Shown: positions 3,748 to 27,181 of the stretch, in pieces
Layout: every line of letters begins with the position of its first letter
How positions within the stretch are numbered: position 1 is the first letter of the stretch
From: a virus
Taxonomy: Duplodnaviria; Caudoviricetes
Reading direction: 5' to 3' (one strand)
IMG/VR virus record: IMGVR_UViG_3300021431_004083
Span: 96,001-160,000 of that record
Length of the DNA: 64,000 nucleotides
Notes under the pieces: generated by a model
What the model was told of the DNA's origin: nothing
What the model saw: the letters and a program-made list of their open reading frames with translations, nothing else
Databases searched by the model: none
Made by a program: the position numbers and the translations under genes

Positions 3748-5397
3748 TTACTTAGAAGCCTTGCTTCTCTTCTTCAGATTCATCGCAACGACAACAATAC
3801 CGGCGAGCAGAAGAACTGCGCCTGCGCCGTAGAACATAACGGAACCGATACCACCGGTCTGCGGCAGGAATACTTTGTCATTGGTAACACGAGCGCCTAC
3901 GTAACCAATATGGTCACGACCGCGGAACTTGTAGTTCGCAGGATAAGCAGCAGCAGCATTACCGTCAACAGTGAACTTACCGTCCTCAGTATATTCCTGA
4001 ACCTTGGTCTCATCAGCCCATGTGTTGTTAGTAAAGGACTCCTTATATGCTGTGGTAATGGTAATCGGGATTACCTTAGTAAAAGCAGAATAACTCGCAG
4101 GAGCTTCAGTCTCTCTCACATAATAGGTACCTGCTCTCAGAGCAACAGGCTTACCGGAGATATCACGATTATTAGCAGTCTGACCGTCGAGATAAGTGAA
4201 GAAAACTTCACCCTGAGTATTAGAAGTACCCTCAGCAATAGGATTTGTCAGCGCCTCAGCATTAGCTTCTGTCTTAAACAGCTGGAACTTGGCGCCTTCG
4301 AGAGCCTTATTATCTTGACCGCGCAGCTTACCGATCATCAGACTGTAAGTATAAACCCAAGCGTCATCGGGCTCAGTCTCGCTTGTATTATCAGCGTAGT
4401 TTGTCCACTCAAGCTTAACCTCATTCGGGTTACCCTCATAGCCGATAACAGCATGCTCATTCAAAACACCGCTATAATAAAGACGAACATAAGCAGCCTG
4501 ATAGAACAGCTCCGTAGATTGCAGATACTCAGGCTTCAGAGAAACTCTGATTGTTGTTGCCTCACCATTGCCGCCGGTAACATCGATAGTGTAGTTAGCG
4601 GGGTCAATAACGGATGATTTAGTCTTCTCCGAATTCAGCAAACGTACCTGAACGGAACCGTCGAGATAAGTAAGACCTTTGCTCATGGTATCAACAAAAG
4701 AATAAGCCTTCAGTCTGAAATCCTTTGTGGGGTCAGTTTCGTTATAAGCGCCGACGGTATCAGCGTCAACACAGAAACGAACCGAACCACCCATAGGAAC
4801 CTCGGTATACTCAGTCTGACCTTCGATAGTAGAATTAGTGATAGTCTTATCAACAGTAACAGTATCACTCTCAACCTTAGTAGCGAGCTCAACGGGGTCA
4901 ATGCTGTAAGTCCAACCATTCTCAGCAGCGTAATAAGGCAGAGCGAAGATCGAGTTTCTTACGGACTTAACAGTATTAGGAGTACCTGTCGCGCGAACAT
5001 AGAAGAGGCCCTGTGTCAGATTAGACAGAGTCTTGGTCGCGCCGTCTGTGTCAGACGAATAAGTACCGACAACAACAGCACCCTTAGTCTCAAGCTCAGA
5101 AGTAGCAATATTATCGAGAGTTCTGAGTGTAGTAGTTGCAGCGCCATAAGGCAAGGCGGCCGCAATATCAGTCATAAGAGGCTTATAACTGACCTCATAC
5201 GGGTTCAGCAGCTTCTCTTCGGTATCAGCTACACGATAAACTGTAAATGTGTAACCGGGCTTATCGCAGTTCATTGTGAAACTGACCTTTGCATTAGGGT
5301 CAAATGAACCTGTCGCAGCAGTAACAGACATGGCGCCAAGCATGGCGACGAGCATTACTGCGAGGAAAAGAGCAAGAAGTCTTTTCGTTGTTTTCAT
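3748..5397 (-). CDS. Major (backbone) pilin, SpaH/EbpB-like, LPXTG-anchored
   Basis: Signal peptide from MKTTKR; isopeptide-domain motifs (DTMSKGLTY, GNPNEVKLEW); E-box YYVRETEAP; LPQTG + TM + basic tail. Confidence 0.9.
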   Translation of the reverse strand: MKTTKRLLALFLAVMLVAMLGAMSVTAATGSFDPNAKVSFTMNCDKPGYTFTVYRVADTEEKLLNPYEVSYKPLMTDIAAALPYGAATTTLRTLDNIATSELETKGAVVVGTYSSDTDGATKTLSNLTQGLFYVRATGTPNTVKSVRNSIFALPYYAAENGWTYSIDPVELATKVESDTVTVDKTITNSTIEGQTEYTEVPMGGSVRFCVDADTVGAYNETDPTKDFRLKAYSFVDTMSKGLTYLDGSVQVRLLNSEKTKSSVIDPANYTIDVTGGNGEATTIRVSLKPEYLQSTELFYQAAYVRLYYSGVLNEHAVIGYEGNPNEVKLEWTNYADNTSETEPDDAWVYTYSLMIGKLRGQDNKALEGAKFQLFKTEANAEALTNPIAEGTSNTQGEVFFTYLDGQTANNRDISGKPVALRAGTYYVRETEAPASYSAFTKVIPITITTAYKESFTNNTWADETKVQEYTEDGKFTVDGNAAAAYPANYKFRGRDHIGYVGARVTNDKVFLPQTGGIGSVMFYGAGAVLLLAGIVVVAMNLKKRSKASK

Positions 5398-5468
5398 GTA
5401 AAAATCACCAAAACCTTTCTTCCCGAACGCGGGATATAAATTTTTCACAAACCTAACGGTTCTCTAAC

Positions 5469-5497
5469 AATATAACACATCGAAAAAGAAAATGCAA
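5469..5497 (-). promoter_or_regulatory. Sigma-A promoter for the major pilin
   Basis: TTGCAT-17 nt-TATATT with extended TG. Confidence 0.7.
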
Positions 5498-5599
5498 TAG
5501 TTTATTCACAAAAAAGTAAATAAAATTGTAAAAATCCCCATTCGACATTGAAACAGACGCCGTGCCGTATACAAGACACGGCGTCCATTATCAAAAATA

Positions 5600-8500
5600 T
5601 CACTTAACGATAGTCGAGCGAATCCTGCGGCGTCTGAAGAACAGAACACCGAATACACCGAGAGACAAAGCAAGCAACGCGGCAACATAATAAATCATAT
5701 TACCTGTACCGCCTGTTTTCGGCGCGAAAATCTTGTCGTTAACGAACACAAGTTCATCCATATCATACGTCTGACCACCGTTCATGACACGAACCTTACC
5801 CTCATCTGTCAGTGTAAACGTGACAGGAACATTCGACGTAGAGTAATTCGCCAAAGGTGTTGATTCAAGAATCACATAAGTACCCGGCTCAAGATTCTTA
5901 ATTGTCAGCTTACCCTTATTGGAACCAGTACTACCCGTTCTCATAATATATTCCGAATCAGCAGCAAACGTATTCTTAATCTTCTTATTAGCGCCAGAGC
6001 CTTTGGCACGGAAATAATCCTGAATACCATCAATGATTTCGGCGCCCTGTTTCTTATAAACACCATTGGTGCCTGTTGCCTTGATAACACCATTTCTGCC
6101 GTTTGTGCCTGCACCAAGAACAAAGCCTACGTTTGCTTGTGGCTTAGTACCTTGCAACTGCGCCTCAAGAGACGAAGTGTTGTCGGGCAAAGACGAGCGG
6201 TAGTATTTCTTAACGACGACGTCAAATACCTTATAGGTATTCTGAACAGGAATCGTCTCAGTGAGAACGCCCTGAACAGTGGTCTGTGTATGATTGAGAT
6301 ACTCAGGCTCGTCATAACCTGTAACAGTCGACTCTGTCACATAATAACGACAAGGAATCGCATGCTCACCCACGGTTTCATAAGCCGTAAACTTTTTACC
6401 GTTACTATCGGTACCCAAACGAGAACCAAGGTCCTCAGCAATCTTATCATCGAAAAACGCCGAAGCTACGACAGGCTGACCTGTCACTTTAACAGAACCA
6501 GTGTCTCCTGTAAAGTTATTAATGGTATACGTGCCAACTGTTTTGGTAATGGTCGCGGACTCGCCGTTTGTCGTATAGTATCCCGGAACGACGTACTCAC
6601 GATACAGCGTAAAATCAACGGATGCAGGACGCTTGTTCGCCGCATTGTTTCTGTCATTCCAACGCTTCTCAAGGACAATATTCTTGGTTTCGTAGTTTGT
6701 CAAGGACAAATCACCGGTCTGCTCGGTAACGTAACCGTTACCTACAGGAACCTCTTCTACGTAATACTCATACTGAATACCACGATAATAATTACCGCGA
6801 GAAGAATCGAAATACTGACCTAAGTCAGCAGAAGGTGTATGGTTTTCTGCTTCAGAAACATATGTCGGCAAATGAGAAACCTTAGTGGACCAATTTGACT
6901 CATCAGATAATGTCAAACCAGAAAGAACCTTCTCTGACAAAATACCTTTCGTCGGATGCGTATCTTTATTCTTAACGAAATCGGAAGCATCCCAACGACG
7001 ATACAAATCTACCTTGATAGATACGGGACGAGTCTGATACTTGTTACTCTCATCGACCCAAGCTTTTGTCACATGAACCGATCGTGTATCGGGACGATAC
7101 GAGTTTTCAATATCAACACGTAAAGGTGATACACCCAGAGGCACATCGGATACCGTCCAATTAACAGAACTGCCGTTTACAGTTCCTGTTGCTTGCTTCG
7201 TCGCAACATGACCAATCTCCTGATTGTACAACATCATCTGCCCGTATTGAACCTTTGCTCTATCGTTATTATAAAGAGTAGTATAAGAATCATCGATGTA
7301 TTCTGTCAACTCACTCACAGGAACAAATGCGTCAGAAGAAGAAGCCTTCAATAACACTTCTCGAATCGAATACTCATAACGGACATAATCACCATCGGCA
7401 TTATAATGACCTTCAGGTAATCCGGTAAACGAATAATTATACTGAGAGGAACCATTCTCGCCTGTTCTAAATGCTTCAGCATTATAGAACGTAACACCAT
7501 CACGGTCCTCGGTCACGCCTAACAGCCGAGAGCCGAACGAATCGCCGTCTCTGTACAGCTCGACACGAATACCGTCGGCACGCGTATTAGCAACATTATG
7601 CAAATCGTCCCAAATCTTAGAACCTTCGACAGTAATAGAAGGAATCTTCTCGTTACTATAGCTCAAAGAAACAACAGTAACCTCCGACTTACTAACTGTT
7701 TCTTTGGTTAGCGTATTATCACTAATGATGCCCCATTGAACAGGATTCTGCGAAAGCTTATAGCCATTAGGAGCTTTAACTTCCGTCACACGATATGTAC
7801 CGCCTCTCTTGAAACGACCTTTGTAAACAGGGAGTCCTGCCTGCTCCAAATCAGTGGCGCGCACTACATCTGTCGCGGAACCGTCAGCATTAACATAATG
7901 CGAAGCAGCTCCGGTATAAGCGAATCCGCTCGAATTCGTTCTCAAATAATAAGTATACTCAGAAGTCTCAGGGATTGCGGAAACACTTGAATAGGCATCC
8001 TCGAAGTACTCAAGCTTAAAAACAGCGCCGCGAAGCTTTGCGCCTGTGTTCGCATCTGTTTTCTTAATATATATAGGAACATACTGCTCATTAGGGATGA
8101 CCTTATGACCGATAGTAGCATCATCTTCACCGACGTAAATCACACCAGTCTCATCACCTGTCAAGTTACCGAAGTAAACTTTATCAATAGGATTGTAACC
8201 TGCAGGCGCAGAAACCTCGGTCAAACGATAAGAACCTTCAGGGAAGTAATCACCGTAATGATTATCAATAGCGGAACCAGGACAAGAAGAATCCGTTTTA
8301 GAACCAGGCAAATCGTTACGCAAATCATTATTGTCCGCGTAAATCCTACCTAATGTGGTCACACCGGAACCGTTGTAACCAATCAAAGTACCATTATTAT
8401 CATAAAGCGAAAGCTTATCGATATCCGCACCTGAACCGAGATAATAAACACGAGCAGGCTCGGTATCACCTATCTCAGACTCAGAAGCAAACTGCTTATC

Positions 8501-11500
8501 AAAGAACTCCAACTTAAAAACAGCACCGCTTCGATGGGCTTTTGTTTCAGCGTTAATCTTATCAAAAGCGATAAAGGAACCTCTGTCAACATAGTTCACA
8601 TGCTCAACATCCACTGATTTACTACTGTTACCACCAGGAACTGTTACAGAATAAACCTTGTTTTTATTATTATCATCCTTATACGTTCCATCATCATTCA
8701 TTGGATGTAAATGAGAATCATCCTTAAAGAATTCACGATAATAATAAGTCTTAGATTCCTCTGAAGCTTGCAGCGTCACGTTCAATAAACCATCCTCGTC
8801 GAGACTTATATTTTCAGCCTTCGTCTTCGACGTATCACCGTTAACAGACAAACATTCCAAAACATGTTTTTCATCTTTTTTAACAGCGGCTTCCTCGGAC
8901 GTATAGAAAGTGAAACTCACTGAACTATACGAATACAAATCCTTTATCTCCTCGTTGTGTACAAACGTGACAAGACCGTCGGGAACCTCGTACAAATCAT
9001 CTTTGGTCGGTGTCTTATTCGGATTATTGTTATAATCAGAAGAAACTAACTTCTTAGTAAGATTGATACCTGTTTTTTGTACAGGGTCATCAACCTTAAC
9101 CAATACAGTACGTTGCGTTTCATCAACAGTGACATTCGGCTTATGTTTGCTTACATATGAACTTCTATAAGTTGGTACTATTGAATAACCGACAGGAGCA
9201 CGATTCTCAACAAGATAATACTCACCATAAGGAATATCACTAAATTCAAGATGACCGTTTTCGTCGGTACGACCGGTACACAATTTACCGTTCTTGTTGC
9301 GAACCATACCCCCATTTGTATCAAGAAGTGTAAACTTTGCGTCCTTCAAATGATTATTAGGGTTACCGCCACCTGTTTTCTCGATAGAAACGCTACCATA
9401 AGGTATGTTTGTTACATTCTTTGTATACGCGACAGTACCGTTTTGTGTATTATCAGGATTCAACGAAATAAAATACGTAGATGAACCGTTCGTTTTGAAG
9501 TTGTCATACGAACCTGCATCATTTGCAGCAGTGACAACATCAGAAACAGCAAAACCTGAACTATGCACATCATAAGGCTCAGGAACCTCATCTTCAACAA
9601 GAACATAATCACCGTAAGGAAGCTTATCAACAGAAATCTCACCACGACTGTTTGTTGTCAATACATCCGTATCGAGAACAGGTGTAGCAGCGGTCTTCAT
9701 CTCATAGAAATCATGACTTCTATAAAGCTTAAACTTAGCGTCTTCGATAACAGTATCGGGATTAAAACTCGAAGTTTTCTTTATCTTTAAAGACGCAGAA
9801 GCGACAGGACTGTTCGTCAAATCAATATTGTTAACATTCGAAAGAGCATTTTCATTGCAAACAAACGTTACGGCGTTATGATTTTTATCCATAGCCACAT
9901 AAAAAACATTGTCTTTGTCCAACTGGTCCGTTTGAGCGTCTTTGCCCGACTGGTCCGTTTGAGCGCCATGTTCATCTGTATGAATGCTACTATAATCCTT
10001 CAAATCAAGAATGTTACCGTAATTATTATTAGATGCAGAGATTTCTTGAATACGATACTGAACGTTCGGTCTGGTTACATAAAGACCTGCCTTCCATTCA
10101 TCATCAAGCTTCAATGTCCACGTACTCCCACTCTTATCTAACCACTTACTCGGAACATTTACATCCCAAACGCCTGTTCCGCCGTTCGCGCCGTTACCAT
10201 TCATATCGCCGAGACGGACATCCTTCCAAGTACTGCCTACCTTTTCCTGAACTTTAAAACGAACCTGAGACAACTTACCGTAATACTCAGTGTGGTCAGG
10301 GTGACTACGAAGGTCAACATTATCGCCGACACCTGTCATACCTGTCATATCAGGATACTTCTGAATGCAAATTGGTGTACGGATAATGGCAGAACTCATA
10401 TAAACCTGATAATAATCATTATTATTCTTGTTTTTATAATAATCAGGATTACGAGGATACATATAAAAACACGATACCTCAGCAGGAACACTCGGGATAC
10501 GAGCCATACTGCTATTGCCATCATCAAGATCATATTCACCATAAAGATAAAGTTTATAACCTGTAGGTGATGTCACACCATTCTTTACCGTGTAATAATT
10601 TTTTATTTTGCCATCGCTGCTCTTACCTGCCTCAAAACAAACCTTCAAAAGCTCCTGAACGGACAACGTCCAACAACGACGTGTCTTATTGGCAACGCCG
10701 AGCTGCCATGAGCAACCCAATGCCGTACGTCTGTAGGAATACCCATATTGCTCAGTCTCTTGTTCATACGCGTCCTTATCGTCAACAGTATGGTTGCCAT
10801 GTAAAAACTTATAATCAAAATAGCCACCATTTTGCGCAGCCATAAATGAAATACCCCAACCATCAGGGTCATCCTGAAGATTAACTTTCGAAAGATAAGC
10901 ATGCTCCAAATCAAAGATAACATTTTTATTAAAAACGCATCGTCTTAATGTTCTGTCAACAGTATGTGCTGACCAACCCCAACGAGATTCCCATCGCTCA
11001 TCCCATTCAAGATTATTACCGCTGCTGTTGGTCGTATATTCTCTGACGACAACCTTTTCCTTGTCATCATAAACCCAACCCCAACCAGACTTCTTAGAAC
11101 CATTTGAATCATAATAACAGGATTCGTTTTTCAATTCACTTAACGCTGAATTATCAACAATATCATTTGTCAAATAACCGCAAAATGCCATAGCGTAAAA
11201 GACATCTTCATAAGTGACACGGAACTTTTTCTGTTTTTTCCCGTTTTCGTCAATTTCGTCAACAATACGACCCAGCAAGTGGAACTTCTTATTCGTACCA
11301 GGCGTTGTGCAATAGTCAAAACGACCAGCTTCGTCGGGTTCATTTTGTTCTCTTCTGAGGTCAGCGGTCTCAGGATCGAATGCTTCCTTGATATAAGAGA
11401 AACGATTAAAAGGTCTATGCTCATCATTTACTGTACTGTAATCGCCATAAGAAACATTAGCGGCATCGGGACCCGGACCATCAGTATCATACCAATATTT

Positions 11501-12430
11501 GGCCCATTCATAAAGACAATTTTTAAAATACTCAATCTGTTGGTCAGTCAAATAGTTTTCTGAACCAATAGAACGAATTGTCCTGTTCTCACCATCAGCA
11601 AGCAAACTCGGCGTAGTAACTTCCTGATAATCAAACAAATCGTTTCCGTCACGATGTTTGTACATACGAGGGGTAAAATAATAAAAAAGTCTGGAGCGCA
11701 AAGCATCATTATTTATACCATACAAATTCGGGTCCAAACCCTTTTGTTTGAAATCGCTTGCAGAAGTGAAAGGGTCAGCTTTAGCAGGAGCTACAACACA
11801 CTGTGCAACATTCGTAAAACTACCGAACGCTTCGCCAAAAACAGAATTTGCTGTACCATCAGAATGGAAACCCGGGACAACGATACCATGAGCACCATAA
11901 TCATTAGGCTCCCATATCCAATGCCACTCTTCTTCGCCTTTAGCGTTAATAGTACGAAAAGACTTTTTAAGAGCACCCCAATAAGAAAATTTCGCTGGTG
12001 TGGTGTTAGTTCCCGGTATAGAATCAGGAATCCAGTCAGGATTACTCACAGTACCATCATTAGCCTTATAATCATTACGAGCATTTGTTTGTCGTACATC
12101 TTTAGAAAACGAATTGGTACGGTTATCTGTACGGTTCACGTTTCCTCTACCAACACCGGTATTGTAAACAGAAGACAAAGCACCTGACCCTTTATAAAAA
12201 CTCCAAGAACCTTGGTCAGGTGAAATGATATAATCGTAACTCAAATTACCCGTACGAACTACATTGGAACCCTGATAGCCAGTATACTTAAACGTTAACG
12301 TGCCAGAATTCTGGTTATCGGGTGTCGGCCATTCTGTAACAGCCAACGCTACGGTAAACGTCGACAGCAGCGTCAAAACAACAAGTGCCAACGCAATACC
12401 TGCTTTAGTGAACTTAGAAAATTTAGACAA
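5600..12430 (-). CDS. Large pilus tip adhesin / SpaA- and Cna-B-repeat surface protein (2276 aa)
   Basis: Signal peptide; repeated GxYxLxExxAPxGY and KxWxD motifs; APKTG + TM + RRRR; strong RBS (aggagg) before TTG. Confidence 0.9.
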   Translation of the reverse strand: MSKFSKFTKAGIALALVVLTLLSTFTVALAVTEWPTPDNQNSGTLTFKYTGYQGSNVVRTGNLSYDYIISPDQGSWSFYKGSGALSSVYNTGVGRGNVNRTDNRTNSFSKDVRQTNARNDYKANDGTVSNPDWIPDSIPGTNTTPAKFSYWGALKKSFRTINAKGEEEWHWIWEPNDYGAHGIVVPGFHSDGTANSVFGEAFGSFTNVAQCVVAPAKADPFTSASDFKQKGLDPNLYGINNDALRSRLFYYFTPRMYKHRDGNDLFDYQEVTTPSLLADGENRTIRSIGSENYLTDQQIEYFKNCLYEWAKYWYDTDGPGPDAANVSYGDYSTVNDEHRPFNRFSYIKEAFDPETADLRREQNEPDEAGRFDYCTTPGTNKKFHLLGRIVDEIDENGKKQKKFRVTYEDVFYAMAFCGYLTNDIVDNSALSELKNESCYYDSNGSKKSGWGWVYDDKEKVVVREYTTNSSGNNLEWDERWESRWGWSAHTVDRTLRRCVFNKNVIFDLEHAYLSKVNLQDDPDGWGISFMAAQNGGYFDYKFLHGNHTVDDKDAYEQETEQYGYSYRRTALGCSWQLGVANKTRRCWTLSVQELLKVCFEAGKSSDGKIKNYYTVKNGVTSPTGYKLYLYGEYDLDDGNSSMARIPSVPAEVSCFYMYPRNPDYYKNKNNNDYYQVYMSSAIIRTPICIQKYPDMTGMTGVGDNVDLRSHPDHTEYYGKLSQVRFKVQEKVGSTWKDVRLGDMNGNGANGGTGVWDVNVPSKWLDKSGSTWTLKLDDEWKAGLYVTRPNVQYRIQEISASNNNYGNILDLKDYSSIHTDEHGAQTDQSGKDAQTDQLDKDNVFYVAMDKNHNAVTFVCNENALSNVNNIDLTNSPVASASLKIKKTSSFNPDTVIEDAKFKLYRSHDFYEMKTAATPVLDTDVLTTNSRGEISVDKLPYGDYVLVEDEVPEPYDVHSSGFAVSDVVTAANDAGSYDNFKTNGSSTYFISLNPDNTQNGTVAYTKNVTNIPYGSVSIEKTGGGNPNNHLKDAKFTLLDTNGGMVRNKNGKLCTGRTDENGHLEFSDIPYGEYYLVENRAPVGYSIVPTYRSSYVSKHKPNVTVDETQRTVLVKVDDPVQKTGINLTKKLVSSDYNNNPNKTPTKDDLYEVPDGLVTFVHNEEIKDLYSYSSVSFTFYTSEEAAVKKDEKHVLECLSVNGDTSKTKAENISLDEDGLLNVTLQASEESKTYYYREFFKDDSHLHPMNDDGTYKDDNNKNKVYSVTVPGGNSSKSVDVEHVNYVDRGSFIAFDKINAETKAHRSGAVFKLEFFDKQFASESEIGDTEPARVYYLGSGADIDKLSLYDNNGTLIGYNGSGVTTLGRIYADNNDLRNDLPGSKTDSSCPGSAIDNHYGDYFPEGSYRLTEVSAPAGYNPIDKVYFGNLTGDETGVIYVGEDDATIGHKVIPNEQYVPIYIKKTDANTGAKLRGAVFKLEYFEDAYSSVSAIPETSEYTYYLRTNSSGFAYTGAASHYVNADGSATDVVRATDLEQAGLPVYKGRFKRGGTYRVTEVKAPNGYKLSQNPVQWGIISDNTLTKETVSKSEVTVVSLSYSNEKIPSITVEGSKIWDDLHNVANTRADGIRVELYRDGDSFGSRLLGVTEDRDGVTFYNAEAFRTGENGSSQYNYSFTGLPEGHYNADGDYVRYEYSIREVLLKASSSDAFVPVSELTEYIDDSYTTLYNNDRAKVQYGQMMLYNQEIGHVATKQATGTVNGSSVNWTVSDVPLGVSPLRVDIENSYRPDTRSVHVTKAWVDESNKYQTRPVSIKVDLYRRWDASDFVKNKDTHPTKGILSEKVLSGLTLSDESNWSTKVSHLPTYVSEAENHTPSADLGQYFDSSRGNYYRGIQYEYYVEEVPVGNGYVTEQTGDLSLTNYETKNIVLEKRWNDRNNAANKRPASVDFTLYREYVVPGYYTTNGESATITKTVGTYTINNFTGDTGSVKVTGQPVVASAFFDDKIAEDLGSRLGTDSNGKKFTAYETVGEHAIPCRYYVTESTVTGYDEPEYLNHTQTTVQGVLTETIPVQNTYKVFDVVVKKYYRSSLPDNTSSLEAQLQGTKPQANVGFVLGAGTNGRNGVIKATGTNGVYKKQGAEIIDGIQDYFRAKGSGANKKIKNTFAADSEYIMRTGSTGSNKGKLTIKNLEPGTYVILESTPLANYSTSNVPVTFTLTDEGKVRVMNGGQTYDMDELVFVNDKIFAPKTGGTGNMIYYVAALLALSLGVFGVLFFRRRRIRSTIVK
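9911..9964. repeat. In-frame 27-bp tandem duplication within the adhesin
   Basis: GTCTTTG(T/C)CC(A/G)ACTGGTCCGTTTGAGC x2, encoding AQTDQxxKD. Confidence 0.8.
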
Positions 12431-19269: not shown

Positions 19270-19276
19270 AAAACAT

Positions 19277-19548
19277 ACGAGGGATGTAGGCTTAGAGGCA
19301 GCCATCATCTAAGGAGTAAGACGCCGGGATTGCGTGTAGTGAAGGTCGGGGAAACCGACACAGCGTGCACGCGGTGGTGATGAGAACACTTAAAGCGATA
19401 ACGTGTCGCTAAACGGTATCATCACCATTGTCAATTCGTCGCTGACGAGCACGGCATAGCAGTAATGAGCGACTGTAATCTATCTGCTATTGCGACACAC
19501 CCTACAGTCGGTAAGAGTCTTTTTGGCGTAACAGCACACCTCGTACCA
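19277..19548 (+). ncRNA. 23S rRNA H43-H44 (L11-binding / GTPase-associated centre) mimic RNA with a 208-nt insertion and ACCA 3' end
   Basis: GGATGTAGGCTTAGAGGCAGCCATCATCTAAGGAGT...GCGTAACAGCACAC matches 23S positions ~1055-1104; closed by ACGAGG/CCTCGT + ACCA; no other rRNA sequence in the flanks. Confidence 0.88.
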
Positions 19549-19572: not shown

Positions 19573-19830
19573 ATGACACGTACTGTGACATATACATGTG
19601 AAGTCTGCGGACGTCAAAGCGGAAGCGCAATTGACATTATAAAATGCGAATGCTCCCATCTTGGAATAACCGTAGACCAACTAAAAGAATGGAAGCTGCT
19701 GAAAGGCGCTGTCCGAATGACAAAAACACATGCAACAACAGAGCAAGTTATTAAAGACGCCATCAAAAATCTGAATGACTTCGAAACAAAACATCAGCTC
19801 ACAGGAAAAACTGTACCCAACCTATGTTAA
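19573..19830 (+). CDS. Small Zn-finger protein (paralog of 23898-24179)
   Basis: YTCEVCG...DIIKCECSHL; aggaagg RBS. Confidence 0.75.
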   Translation: MTRTVTYTCEVCGRQSGSAIDIIKCECSHLGITVDQLKEWKLLKGAVRMTKTHATTEQVIKDAIKNLNDFETKHQLTGKTVPNLC

Positions 19831-20050: not shown

Positions 20051-20470
20051 GGGCCTGCTTGGTTTCGACAGGCTATACGAAAGAATCTATCACGCACGTG
20101 TCCCATCGCGTACGGGGAAACAAAAAATAAACGACACTAATACTGTTGTACTTCATCCCGCATTCTCCGCTGCTTGCGCTCGCGCTGCAGCCTGATTGCA
20201 TTACGGATACCAAAACGGCACGTCCGCTGTTTGATAAGGCCTGAGGTTCGAAGATAAACAGCACACAGTTTCCTGTTTCTGCAAAAAACAGGTGGTGGAG
20301 TGATGAAGAAACCCTTCATCCCTAAACGGCTGATTGCGCCGTACGTCAATTCGTAAAGAAAACGCCGTCCGTCTGACACGGTAATAATCTAAAAGCTCAG
20401 ACTATTGCGTAAGTATGATATTTTCAAGTAGATAGTTTGGACACGGGTTCGACTCCCGTCAGGTCCACCA
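20051..20470 (+). ncRNA. ssrA: tmRNA; predicted tag (A)DTNTVVLHPAFSAACARAAA*
   Basis: GGGCCTG/CAGGTCC acceptor with G3.U70; GGTTTCGAC; T-arm GGGTTCGACTCCC; ACCA end; ATAAAC-GAC resume context, tag frame 20133-20195. Confidence 0.95.
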
Positions 20471-20651: not shown

Positions 20652-21203
20652 ATGCCGTTAGAAGCAATCCGTCGCATCGACGACCTCGGACGAATTGTCG
20701 TTCCGAAAGATATAAGAAAAAGATTAAACCTCGAAGAGGGAGACACCGTATCCCTCGAAACAACCAACGACGCGCTTATCATCAAAAAACATTCCGTGAT
20801 AGGCGAAATCACGAAAAAGGCACAGGCTTGTATCGACGCACTGTCGTTCTCAACAAAGAGTATCGTCATTGCTACTGACAAAAACATCATCACAAACGTA
20901 GCAGGCTTATCAAAACGGAATCTCCTTGAGATGAGCATCTCCGACAGGCTCAAAGAGCTCATCAAAAATAACAAAAAGGGATACCGTCACACACCGACAG
21001 ATGAACCTATGCCCGTGATGAAAAACTCTGCAATGCCTTACGTCAAAGCAACGGCTGTAATCTACGATAAAGCGCTGCTGCCCGTCGGGTGCGTGGCAAT
21101 CATCACGTCAAATAAAGCGGAACTGTCGTTGGGTATCACACCCGCCGAAGATGCGTTACTGAACAACACCGCTGACACCATCACACGGCTCATAAGGGAC
21201 TAA
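20652..21203 (+). CDS. spoVT: SpoVT-like regulator (AbrB DNA-binding domain + GAF-like C-domain)
   Basis: RRIDDLGRIVVPKDIRKRL...IIKKHSVIGEI...TDKNIITNVAG; 183 aa, matching SpoVT length. Confidence 0.85.
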   Translation: MPLEAIRRIDDLGRIVVPKDIRKRLNLEEGDTVSLETTNDALIIKKHSVIGEITKKAQACIDALSFSTKSIVIATDKNIITNVAGLSKRNLLEMSISDRLKELIKNNKKGYRHTPTDEPMPVMKNSAMPYVKATAVIYDKALLPVGCVAIITSNKAELSLGITPAEDALLNNTADTITRLIRD

Positions 21204-22246: not shown

Positions 22247-23764
22247 CTACAACTGTTTTAAATCGTACAAGCTATATAAAACCTCTACAGAATTCCCATT
22301 CAACCGAGATTCTACAAAATCGGGAACTGACATTCCGATGATATAACGCTGAATGTATGTAGCATCGACTGAATCCGCGTTACCGTCGCCATCCACATCA
22401 CCGAGAATATCAGTATAATCAACTTCGTTCCTCACAAAAGGCAATTCCATTCCCACAAGATATCTATGTAAACATGTTACGTCAAGAATATTGACAACAC
22501 CATCAAAATTAACGTCGCCGTAAAGCACCTGTCTCACTTCCATACAGGGAATGGCGCGGCGTTTGCAGTACGAGATGATATACGAAGCGTTCTCTTTGGT
22601 GACAACTGTCAAATCAGACATACCATCGAATGCGTTTTCATGCAGATACGTGATTGTGTCGGGAAGCACAAGCTCCTGCAGGTTCGGGCAATACACAAAA
22701 CCATCTGCGGCAACAAACGAAATAGAAGAATCGACAGAAACACGTTTCAAGTTCGAACAATTAAAAAACAAATGATCGCGAATCGACGGTATACGTTCAA
22801 AATGCACTGTTTCCAACAAAGGACAATCCTTAAAGATATAATAACCCGGACCACCATACATAGAACCGCCGCTCTCATAACGAATAACACCGGCGAACGA
22901 AACAGAACGCAAACTGCTGCAATTCTCAAAAGCATAATTGCCGAGCTTGAAAACATCGGTCTTTGCCGTAAACGTCTCAAGACTTGAACAACCGGAAAAA
23001 GCGAAATTACCGATATGTTCAACAAAATCAGACATCACGGACTTCAAACTTCTACAATTAGCGAACGCTGAATCACCAATACTGCTGCCGCAATCAAAAG
23101 GTATATGCTCCAAAACAAAACAGTCACGAAAAGCGTTGTCCCCAATAAAAGAACACTTAGGACTTTCGACGTAAATGGACGTTAAATTCTCGCAAGACGA
23201 AAACAAACCATAATCGATATAACGAATAGACTTGAAACGAACCGTCTTTAGCGAAGTACAACCACTAAAAGCATAACGCCCAAAATTACAATCTGATGAA
23301 GAAGCATCAAAAAGCTCCAAATGAGAACAACCGTGAAACGCATAATCACCGACGTCAGATACAAAATCTGTATTAGTTACACGCACTAACGAAGAGCATC
23401 CGTCAAATGCGCTTCTCCCAATTGACGTCACACTACAGGAATCAGGGAGCTGAACATCCAATACATTCACAAAATCAGCAAAGGCTGAATCACCTATATG
23501 CGTGACATCTCCTGTAATTTTAATATGACGCACATCAGGCGCATGCTCATACCACACAGGAAATTCGCCCCACGTACAATCATGCATGGCGCCGGAACCG
23601 TTTATAATCAATTCCCCATCTTCTGTAACATGCCATGTAAAACCATCCTCGCTAAAAGAACCGTCTGTACTCGTTTCGGAAGTTTCGGCAAAACAAACCA
23701 AAGTACCCAAACTGAATACAAAAATACCGACAATCAAAAACGTGCAAAAAAATCTCTTAAACAT
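22247..23764 (-). CDS. BspA-type leucine-rich-repeat surface protein with C-terminal type-I dockerin
   Basis: Signal peptide (MFKRFF...; the ORF track starts at 23782); many IGxxAFxxCxxL repeats; GDVNFDGVVNILD and GDVDGDGNADSVDAT duplicated Ca-binding loops. Confidence 0.92.
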   Translation of the reverse strand: MFKRFFCTFLIVGIFVFSLGTLVCFAETSETSTDGSFSEDGFTWHVTEDGELIINGSGAMHDCTWGEFPVWYEHAPDVRHIKITGDVTHIGDSAFADFVNVLDVQLPDSCSVTSIGRSAFDGCSSLVRVTNTDFVSDVGDYAFHGCSHLELFDASSSDCNFGRYAFSGCTSLKTVRFKSIRYIDYGLFSSCENLTSIYVESPKCSFIGDNAFRDCFVLEHIPFDCGSSIGDSAFANCRSLKSVMSDFVEHIGNFAFSGCSSLETFTAKTDVFKLGNYAFENCSSLRSVSFAGVIRYESGGSMYGGPGYYIFKDCPLLETVHFERIPSIRDHLFFNCSNLKRVSVDSSISFVAADGFVYCPNLQELVLPDTITYLHENAFDGMSDLTVVTKENASYIISYCKRRAIPCMEVRQVLYGDVNFDGVVNILDVTCLHRYLVGMELPFVRNEVDYTDILGDVDGDGNADSVDATYIQRYIIGMSVPDFVESRLNGNSVEVLYSLYDLKQL

Positions 23765-23897
23765 ATAAAAGCCACCTTTCATAATAAATTATATAACAAT
23801 TATAACATAAAAACACAAACGACACAACAATAATCTGCGTAACGAAAAATCATCTGAAGAGTTGAAATCGTGTCAAGGAAAAGGAAGGAGCTCAACG

Positions 23898-27107: not shown

Positions 27108-27181
27108 GGTTGCTTCGTTTAACAGGTAAGACGCGTATGCCTCAAAAGCGCGATTTGCGGGTTCGAATCCTGCAGCAACCC
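27108..27181 (+). ncRNA. Aberrant tRNA-like element (CAA loop on a short-variable-loop body)
   Basis: Acceptor GGTTGCT/AGCAACC; T-arm GCGGG-TTCGAAT-CCTGC; bulged anticodon stem with CTCAAAA loop; no CCA. Confidence 0.7.

Follow-up and report, generated by a model that had tools for sequence, protein, structure and literature searches.

The window, i.e., the 64,000-nt stretch of DNA analysed here (positions 96,001 to 160,000 of IMG/VR record IMGVR_UViG_3300021431_004083), encodes an RNA of ~270 nt at positions 19276–19545 (+ strand), the two ends of which form a self-closed copy of helixes H43 and H44 of 23S rRNA. These helixes and the top of H42 make up the GTPase-associated centre (GAC) of 23S rRNA (E. 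coli 1051–1108), known as a 58–60-nt fragment to which uL11 and thiostrepton bind. We are highly confident that the window RNA is a real member of a family of GAC-mimic RNAs carried by mobile elements. Its members reproduce the smallest tertiary domain of 23S rRNA that binds uL11 (H43–H44), closed by an arbitrary helix.

The family is mostly phage-borne and is apparently undescribed; that is, we could not find it described. In Rfam 15, no family reaches gathering score over the element, either in the window or in 14 further loci; tRNA and tmRNA were all that was called in the latter. No description of such an RNA was found in the full-text literature searched. Both results agree with the original prediction, made from the DNA letters of the window, which knew of no described RNA family with this architecture.

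Architecture and Match to 23S rRNA

The H43–H44 copy corresponds to E. coli 1055–1104 and is split at 1090/1091 by a 204-nt insert. Window positions 19284–19317 correspond to 23S 1057–1090, and 19526–19539 correspond to 1091–1104. The layout of the RNA is as follows, where L202 and L283 are two close relatives.

19276–19282, +: closing helix, 5′ strand, which replaces the top of H42 (19282 is G1055); pairs with 19539–19545
19284–19308, +: H43 mimic (1057–1081); its 1065–1073 loop has A1067 (19294) and, at 1070, a G (19297)
19309–19317, +: triloop closed by C1082–G1086 (19309/19313), then G1087, A1088, G1089, and U1090 as the 5′ strand of H44
19318–19521, +: insert, 204 nt, between 1090 and 1091 (constrained fold and alignment with L202 and L283)
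19318–19322/19517–19521, +: stem Pi of the insert; 4 of 4 pairs at this position covary across the family
19323–19326/19452–19455, +: GCCG/CGGC helix (constrained fold)
19332–19338/19366–19372, +: helix Pa, with its tip at 19345–19349/19355–19359 (constrained fold)
19373–19383/19419–19429, +: helix Pb, with its tip at 19394–19398/19406–19410 (constrained fold)
19436–19440/19444–19448, +: helix Pc (constrained fold)
19456–19462/19484–19491, +: helix Pd; 1 compensatory pair
19470–19477/19503–19510, +: predicted pseudoknot helix Pk; 3 compensatory pairs
19522–19525, +: UUUG linker from the insert to the H44 hairpin; a U precedes UUGG, which itself belongs to the search key, in all 113 members listed
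19526–19538, +: H44 hairpin and 3′ strand (G1091–A1103); 19530 is A1095, and 19536 is A1101, a base specific to the family
19539–19545, +: closing helix, 3′ strand (19539 is C1104); similarity to L283 ends at 19540
19546–19548, +: CCA after the closing helix, probably outside any conserved feature

The window RNA is identical to E. coli rrlH at 29 of 35 bases over 1056–1090 and at 12 of 14 over 1091–1104. It matches the Bacillota consensus more closely, and that consensus already has GAGU at 1087–1090. All of the tertiary-core bases U1060, G1071, C1072, A1077, A1085, G1087, and A1088 are in the RNA, as are the tertiary-core pairs 1082–1086, 1091–1100, and 1092–1099. Position 19284 is A1057, and position 19288 is an A at 1061. 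Direct reading also bears out several details of the original prediction: A1067 and A1095 are kept, 1082/1086 is a C–G pair, and 1090/1101 (19317/19536) is a U–A pair, where real Bacillota and E. coli 23S rRNAs have U at 1101. The predicted rewriting of the closing helix as ACGAGG/CCUCGU (19277–19282/19539–19544) is seen too, and U19276–A19545 extends it to 7 bp (UACGAGG/CCUCGUA), after which comes CCA. Base 1070, on which the original prediction is silent, is G in the window, versus A in 32 of 32 real 23S rRNAs.

As had been claimed, no 23S sequence flanks the element: the window holds no other rRNA, has no LSU match at gathering score anywhere (Rfam 15), and has ORFs on either side of the RNA. 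Over the element itself, where a split LSU fragment had been expected, Rfam 15 gives a sub-threshold LSU match to the 5′ half only (19281–19325, E 0.001) and no named family. Nor is the insert significantly similar to E. coli 23S rRNA. Thus, the continuity with the rest of domain II that marks a 23S rRNA fragment is not found. The whole 251-kb record contains one copy of the RNA.

Two candidate features were rejected. An ACGCC/GGCGU pairing in the unconstrained fold is not kept across the family and is read as chance. A match of helix Pb to YrlB (Y RNA-like) has an E of 5 and 15 bits, against a threshold of 97.

The RNA Family

By blastn, the 5′ half was found in unannotated ~300-nt gaps of the Rak2-like jumbo phages XaC1, BF, and GAP32, the copies of which have the same split architecture and quite different closing helixes. 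IMG/VR was then scanned with a 17-nt 3′ key, TTGGCGTRAYAGCACAC, which true rRNA lacks because it has U at 1101, and at least 118 loci were found. Although the scan did not require it, the 5′ GAC half lies ≤350 nt upstream in 98 of the 122 key matches listed, which comprise the IMG/VR loci and four previously found loci. Over 596 Gb of prokaryote genomes, the key gave 117 matches; 28 of these are members, mostly in MAGs. The family has at least 113 distinct members, with a 1062-to-1104 span of 104–412 nt. A metagenome search from the conserved parts named in the original prediction thus yields a large family, and the window RNA is no singleton.

The carriers are mostly phages, large ones above all. 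Cultured carriers are Pseudomonas phages pf16, Astolliot, Milchi, and UNO-G1W1, Aeromonas phage 4_4572, Cronobacter phage GAP32, Serratia phage BF, and Xanthomonas phages XacN1 and XaC1. In three GenBank records, PQ464595 (Kaldavass), PP551948 (UNO-G1W1), and PQ464597 (Milchi), the RNA lies under a ‘hypothetical protein’ CDS, which is probably a mis-annotation.

Among 101 Bacillota genomes, the mimic is found only in that of Flintibacter muris DSM 110149, which was picked because it carries one. In this cultured isolate, the member (L245:1501–1686, i.e., G002:C4:81115–81300; 129 bits) sits in a prophage-like element. It differs from the true 23S GAC of F. muris, so the mimic does not reproduce the variant of its host. 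A further 30 of these genomes gave only the true 66–67-nt GAC, in one case a 30-nt piece thereof. PLSDB plasmids gave only 36-nt matches which, judged by identity, are as expected of true rRNA operons.

Inserts vary in kind as well as in length. In L033, L046, L118, and L074, members of 355–386 nt, the insert includes a near-exact sarcin-ricin-loop (SRL) hairpin, AGUACGAGAGGA or close variants, flanked by covarying arms. These 3–4 of the 113 listed members thus copy both halves of the ribosome’s factor-binding site, the SRL hairpin and the GAC. A recurrent module in 23 of 87 listed members (e.g., L017, L068, L072, and L103) consists of CACCCC, a 3-bp tetraloop hairpin, and GGUAAGG, and is enclosed by a 3-bp helix that covaries; a related CACCC…GGUAAG is present in the window, and in it the 3′ strand of the pseudoknot takes the place of the hairpin. 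In another subclass (L009, L037, L055, L075, L080, L098, and others), the H43 mimic is enlarged by a hairpin placed between C1076 and A1077; 1076/1077 is thus a second site at which the GAC fold tolerates an insertion.

Covariation and Conservation

A covariance model was built from an alignment of 34 members, with the window left out. The model matches window 19274–19547 end to end (model positions 1–187 of 187; 88.9 bits, E 1.4e-27). In E. coli 23S rRNA, the model finds exactly 1047–1112, and true 23S rRNAs score 41–63 bits. Together with the base-by-base reading, this full-length match establishes that the H43–H44 mimic originally claimed is real. The window RNA also has the features that mark the family: a Pi stem at 1090/1091, UUUG, A1101, and an arbitrary closing helix, 7 bp long versus a family median of 8 bp.

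In the 34-member alignment, 93.7% of cells are paired, versus 70% in shuffled alignments and 35–56% with slid partners. Changes on both sides are found in 16 of 24 pairs: they affect 8 of 9 pairs of the closing helix, 4 of 4 in the insert-opening stem, the H43 pairs 1057–1081, 1058–1080, and 1062–1076, and pair 1082–1086, which is UA in 18 of the 34 members, CG in 8, and AU in 6. Covariation among homologues, one of the tests named for the original prediction, is therefore present in the closing helix, H43, pair 1082–1086, and the insert stem. As to the other, homologues running on into flanking 23S sequence, there are none in 14 other loci.

Conservation was scored in the 95 listed members with canonical spacing; since A1101 and UUGG are fixed by the 3′ key used to collect the sample, and ≤2 changes were allowed in 1062–1075, the figures are biased upwards. 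With that bias, U1060, G1063, U1066, G1071, C1072, G1074, A1077, A1085, G1087, and A1088 are invariant, and 1061 (U 62%, A 22%, G 12%, C 4%), 1067 (A 81%), 1068 (G 81%), 1070 (A 80%), and 1095 (A 95%) are variable. Real 23S rRNAs, of which 30 from Bacillota were compared, show no variation at the latter five positions or in the CCAGG/CUGG stem. The A at 1061, to which the original prediction gave weight as a stabilizing substitution, carries none: the base varies in the family, both close relatives have G there, and U1061A is described as making the GAC fold Mg2+-dependent, not simply more stable (PMC6239185).

L11 binding needs the tertiary fold, and A1070 and A1095, though invariant in rRNA, make no tertiary contacts; A1095 contacts cofactors (PMC6239185). 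As the tertiary-core bases of the mimics are invariant and the factor-contact bases are relaxed, selection appears to act on the fold rather than on the factor-contact surface.

The Insert and the Two Close Relatives

The insert of this member is found in no IMG/VR sequence, and an IMG/VR scan specific for its subclass gave 0 matches. A search for syntenic relatives via the upstream ORF found none. L202 and L283 were found by DNA pattern scans. L202 is a contig of a Eubacteriales MAG, the RNA of which is 97.8% identical to that of the window; L283 is a metagenome contig, the RNA of which is 85.8% identical over 260 nt.

In the three-way alignment, 98.7% of cells pair in the structure made up of the insert and the closing helix, a percentage that leans to the window because the structure was taken from the window’s own sequence. 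The compensatory counts do not lean in this way. There are 10 compensatory pairs, versus 3.2 ± 1.5 in shuffles and 0–1 in slid controls: 3 in the closing helix, which is thereby rewritten in L283, another 3 in Pk, and a single one in each of Pa, Pb, the Pb tip, and Pd. By this pattern of change, the insert is a structured, selected domain with a predicted pseudoknot. The insert of the window has no SRL copy, as judged by blastn-short against E. coli 23S rRNA and by motif search.

Genomic Neighbourhood and Selection

A tRNA-Gln gene lies 630 nt upstream of the element and a tmRNA gene 500 nt downstream, all on the + strand. A tRNA is found ≤300 nt away in 37 of 86 listed family loci, often abutting the closing helix; the window element does not abut one. 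The nearest tRNAs of family loci are on the same strand as the RNA in 132 of 132 cases. These neighbours fix the orientation of the RNA and suggest that tRNA processing releases it. Beside the window element, no promoter or terminator of its own was found.

Proteins are not linked to the RNA in this way. No neighbouring protein is conserved in the 87 listed loci, where the largest cluster is found in 5 of 87, all related phages; the partner of the RNA is therefore likely a host component. The two ORFs that flank the window element belong to no Pfam or PHROG family. The downstream one (19573–19830) starts 28 nt past the element and has a good ribosome-binding site.

Between the window and L202, the RNA (97.8%) is about as well conserved as the tRNA (98.7%) and the tmRNA (98.3%), and the ORFs are 88–95% identical. 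In L283, similarity to the window is limited to the RNA and a tRNA-Leu; the sequence on either side of the RNA is unrelated, and the match begins and ends at the closing helix. These comparisons indicate that the RNA is under purifying selection.

A Possible Off-Ribosome Decoy for uL11

The boundaries of the RNA are those of the fragment that biochemistry has defined as binding L11; of this, H43–H44 alone is kept, and arbitrary helixes take the place of H42. Titration of uL11 and a decoy role, both raised in the original prediction, are plausible. We propose that the RNA acts in trans as a uL11 decoy transcribed with tRNAs, a reading for and against which the chances seem evenly balanced. It would work as follows. 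The RNA would be transcribed from the + strand in common with the tRNA and tmRNA genes nearby, and processing would then remove whatever lies outside the closing helix. Once folded, and off the ribosome, the RNA would capture free or exchanging uL11, which would recognize the fold and not the loop adenines. The outcome would be uL11-poor ribosomes and a weakening of uL11-dependent events such as RelA activation.

The identity of the ligand as uL11 is put forward with confidence that is at or just short of the halfway mark. The decoy is the simplest reading because exactly the minimal uL11 domain is copied, the uL10 site on H42 is not, the fold is strict, the adenines are relaxed, and no protein is linked. 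We count in its favour the covariance-model match, the covariation, the invariance of the core bases, the purifying selection, the tRNA neighbours, and the finding that the element has no uL11 or bL12 gene of its own. Some points sit less well with it. A1067 and A1095 are still mostly kept, though recognition of the fold alone does not require them. The few relatives with an SRL copy point to factor or toxin binding, not to uL11. A uL11 decoy also gives the large, variable, structured insert no evident role. There is about one copy of uL11 per ribosome; as this uL11 is ribosome-bound, a decoy effect would need a high RNA copy number and exchange of uL11.

The broader proposal is that a phage or megaplasmid copy of an rRNA domain captures uL11 or another reader of the GAC, reprogramming translation or silencing the stringent response, and that the insert may recruit a second partner. 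We advance this tentatively, as a possibility that falls somewhat short of an even chance. If true, it would give mobile elements a new hold on host translation; the means would be neither an inhibitory protein nor an additional tRNA but a near-exact, free-standing copy of a functional rRNA domain. As cultured carriers exist, the proposal can be tested at the bench.

Alternative Readings

Instead of uL11, the RNA might bind whatever attacks the GAC: a toxin of a defence or competition system that modifies or cuts rRNA (such as Tre23), an rRNA methyltransferase, or a thiopeptide. As a decoy or sponge, the free RNA would soak up the attacking agent, and the ribosomes that the element needs would stay intact. 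Phage tRNAs replace host tRNAs cut by defence nucleases, and the GAC mimics sit among tRNA genes. An arms race is in keeping with how patchily they are distributed and how much their inserts vary, and one subclass includes a copy of the SRL, the other classic toxin target. The ADP-ribosyltransferase Tre23 modifies 23S H44 around 1095–1098 (PMC8661411), so enzymes aimed at exactly that hairpin exist. However, no H43–H44-directed defence system is known in phage–host conflict, and no counter-defence gene is linked to the RNA. The core is near-identical across carriers of very different hosts, and 1095 varies little. A substrate mimic would also titrate an enzyme poorly amid tens of thousands of ribosomes. 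We judge this reading unlikely, and it is the best of the alternatives to the uL11 decoy.

A translation factor is a less probable partner. The RNA, alone or loaded with uL11, would here serve as a sink or platform for EF-G, the EF-Tu ternary complex, IF2, or RelA-tRNA, bound through the 1067/1095 surface, and would thereby adjust translation or the stringent response. In vitro, EF-G is bound by oligonucleotides made to mimic the thiostrepton and sarcin-ricin domains, according to the mentions in PMC5829649 and PMC3496166 of work by Munishkin and Wool (1997), and A1067 stacks on the elbow of the A/R-tRNA in the RelA complex (PMC5829649). The SRL-like hairpin with covarying arms in the inserts of L033, L046, L118, and L074 is in keeping with such a role. 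Against it, the insert of the window lacks an SRL, as do all but 3–4 of the 113 listed members; the contact bases 1067, 1070, and 1095 are just those that are relaxed, the window itself having G1070; and the uL10/bL12 site on H42 is not retained.

The original prediction also saw a tRNA-like ACCA end, and the RNA might accordingly be charged or matured as a tRNA. There is a real local resemblance: a 7-bp terminal helix is followed by CCA, and most tRNAs and the tmRNA of the carrier encode NCCA. The claim that the RNA is preceded by AT, as tRNA genes are, is true here (cat before ACGAGG), and tat precedes 4 of the 7 tRNA and tmRNA genes of the window. But only 3 of 87 listed members have CCA after the helix, about as many as chance would give, and there is none in L283, the nearest diverged relative to share the insert, where the RNA ends CCGGAUAUUUCAAU. 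The CCA of L202 is uninformative because its RNA is 97.8% identical to that of the window. Neither ARAGORN nor the Rfam tRNA and tmRNA models find a tRNA-like module in the element, and there is no T-arm. We read the CCA as a coincidence, or at most a lineage-specific end, and consider a charged, tRNA-like RNA very improbable.

Equally improbable, and close to refuted, is a uL11-sensing leader that regulates the downstream ORF (19573–19830) in cis. The spacing of 28 nt and the good ribosome-binding site speak for it. However, no downstream gene is conserved over the 87 listed loci, many members have tRNAs on both sides, and the flanks of L283 are unrelated. Nor does the RNA keep a position upstream of a ribosomal-protein gene, as ribosomal-protein leaders do; the ORF downstream in the window falls in no family of Pfam or PHROG.

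Decaying rRNA debris or an assembly chimera, which the high similarity to 23S rRNA might suggest, is already refuted by the family-wide compensatory changes, conservation as strong as that of tRNAs, the lack of flanking 23S sequence in the window and 14 other loci, and the family-specific A1101 and insert site; the original view of a selected RNA, not rRNA debris, stands.

Relation to Known Systems

The mimics resemble the 23S GAC in secondary structure, in the tertiary-core bases, and in the 1082–1086 covariation, which is as in rRNA. Unlike the GAC, they are free-standing, have an arbitrary helix for the H42 strands and A1101 for U, have an insert of 45–330 nt at 1090/1091 and a UUUG linker, and vary at bases 1061, 1067, 1068, 1070, and 1095. 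The family would offer more than 100 natural variants of a well-studied RNA tertiary fold, with insertions tolerated at 1090/1091 and 1076/1077.

Copies of rRNA sites outside the ribosome are also found in mRNA leaders. The L10(L12)4, L1, S8, and L20 leaders, which sit upstream of ribosomal-protein operons in cellular genomes, mimic rRNA sites; they act in cis and are loose copies. The GAC mimics share with them the copying of a protein-binding site of rRNA, but are near-exact, have no conserved downstream gene, and lie among tRNA genes on mobile elements. Rfam 15 has no uL11-sensing leader of this kind.

GOLLD and ROOL are large structured RNAs found beside phage and plasmid tRNA genes, and they copy no rRNA domain. 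Like them, the GAC mimics are borne by mobile elements, lie on the tRNA strand, and have no linked protein; there is no sequence or model match between the mimics and either RNA. Phage-encoded tRNAs and tmRNA are co-located and co-oriented with the mimics, which are equally conserved between relatives. In contrast to these genes, the mimics have no tRNA fold, and their CCA is not conserved.

The Carrier and Its Host

The carrier is a 251-kb record classed in IMG/VR as a virus with terminal repeats. Phage_capsid, Terminase_6N, and Phage_portal have no match in the whole record. A MobL relaxase of 688 aa (182 bits) is encoded outside the window, on the minus strand at ~65.5–67.6 kb of the record (G000:C1; L282:25–2088). 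The carrier also encodes Gram-positive pilins and adhesins and a D5-type primase. AAA_10 and TraG-D_C have no match in it, and T4SS-DNA_transf is present as a weak fragment only. By its gene content, this IMG/VR ‘virus’ is probably a conjugative or mobilizable megaplasmid. Its host is a gut or rumen Clostridia-type bacterium. The GAC-mimic family therefore reaches beyond classical phages. This wider range of carriers, and a variable insert that is itself selected and pseudoknotted, are what the window member adds to the family.

Several further genes of the window bear on the host and the element. A SpaA/Cna_B adhesin of 2276 aa and a Gram-positive pilin subunit of 566 aa (3748–12430, − strand) indicate a Gram-positive host and an element-encoded surface structure. 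A BspA-type leucine-rich-repeat protein (22247–23782, − strand) has a dockerin domain, which suggests a cellulosome-bearing host such as Ruminococcus. An AbrB/SpoVT-type regulator is encoded at 20652–21203 (+ strand). The tmRNA (20051–20470, + strand; 84.5 bits), an unusual cargo for a plasmid-like element, has the predicted tag DTNTVVLHPAFSAACARAAA and is 98.3% identical in L202. Finally, a second tRNA-Leu(CAA) at 27108–27181 (+ strand) has a low score, 38.7 bits, and does not encode CCA, which the window's five other tRNAs do.
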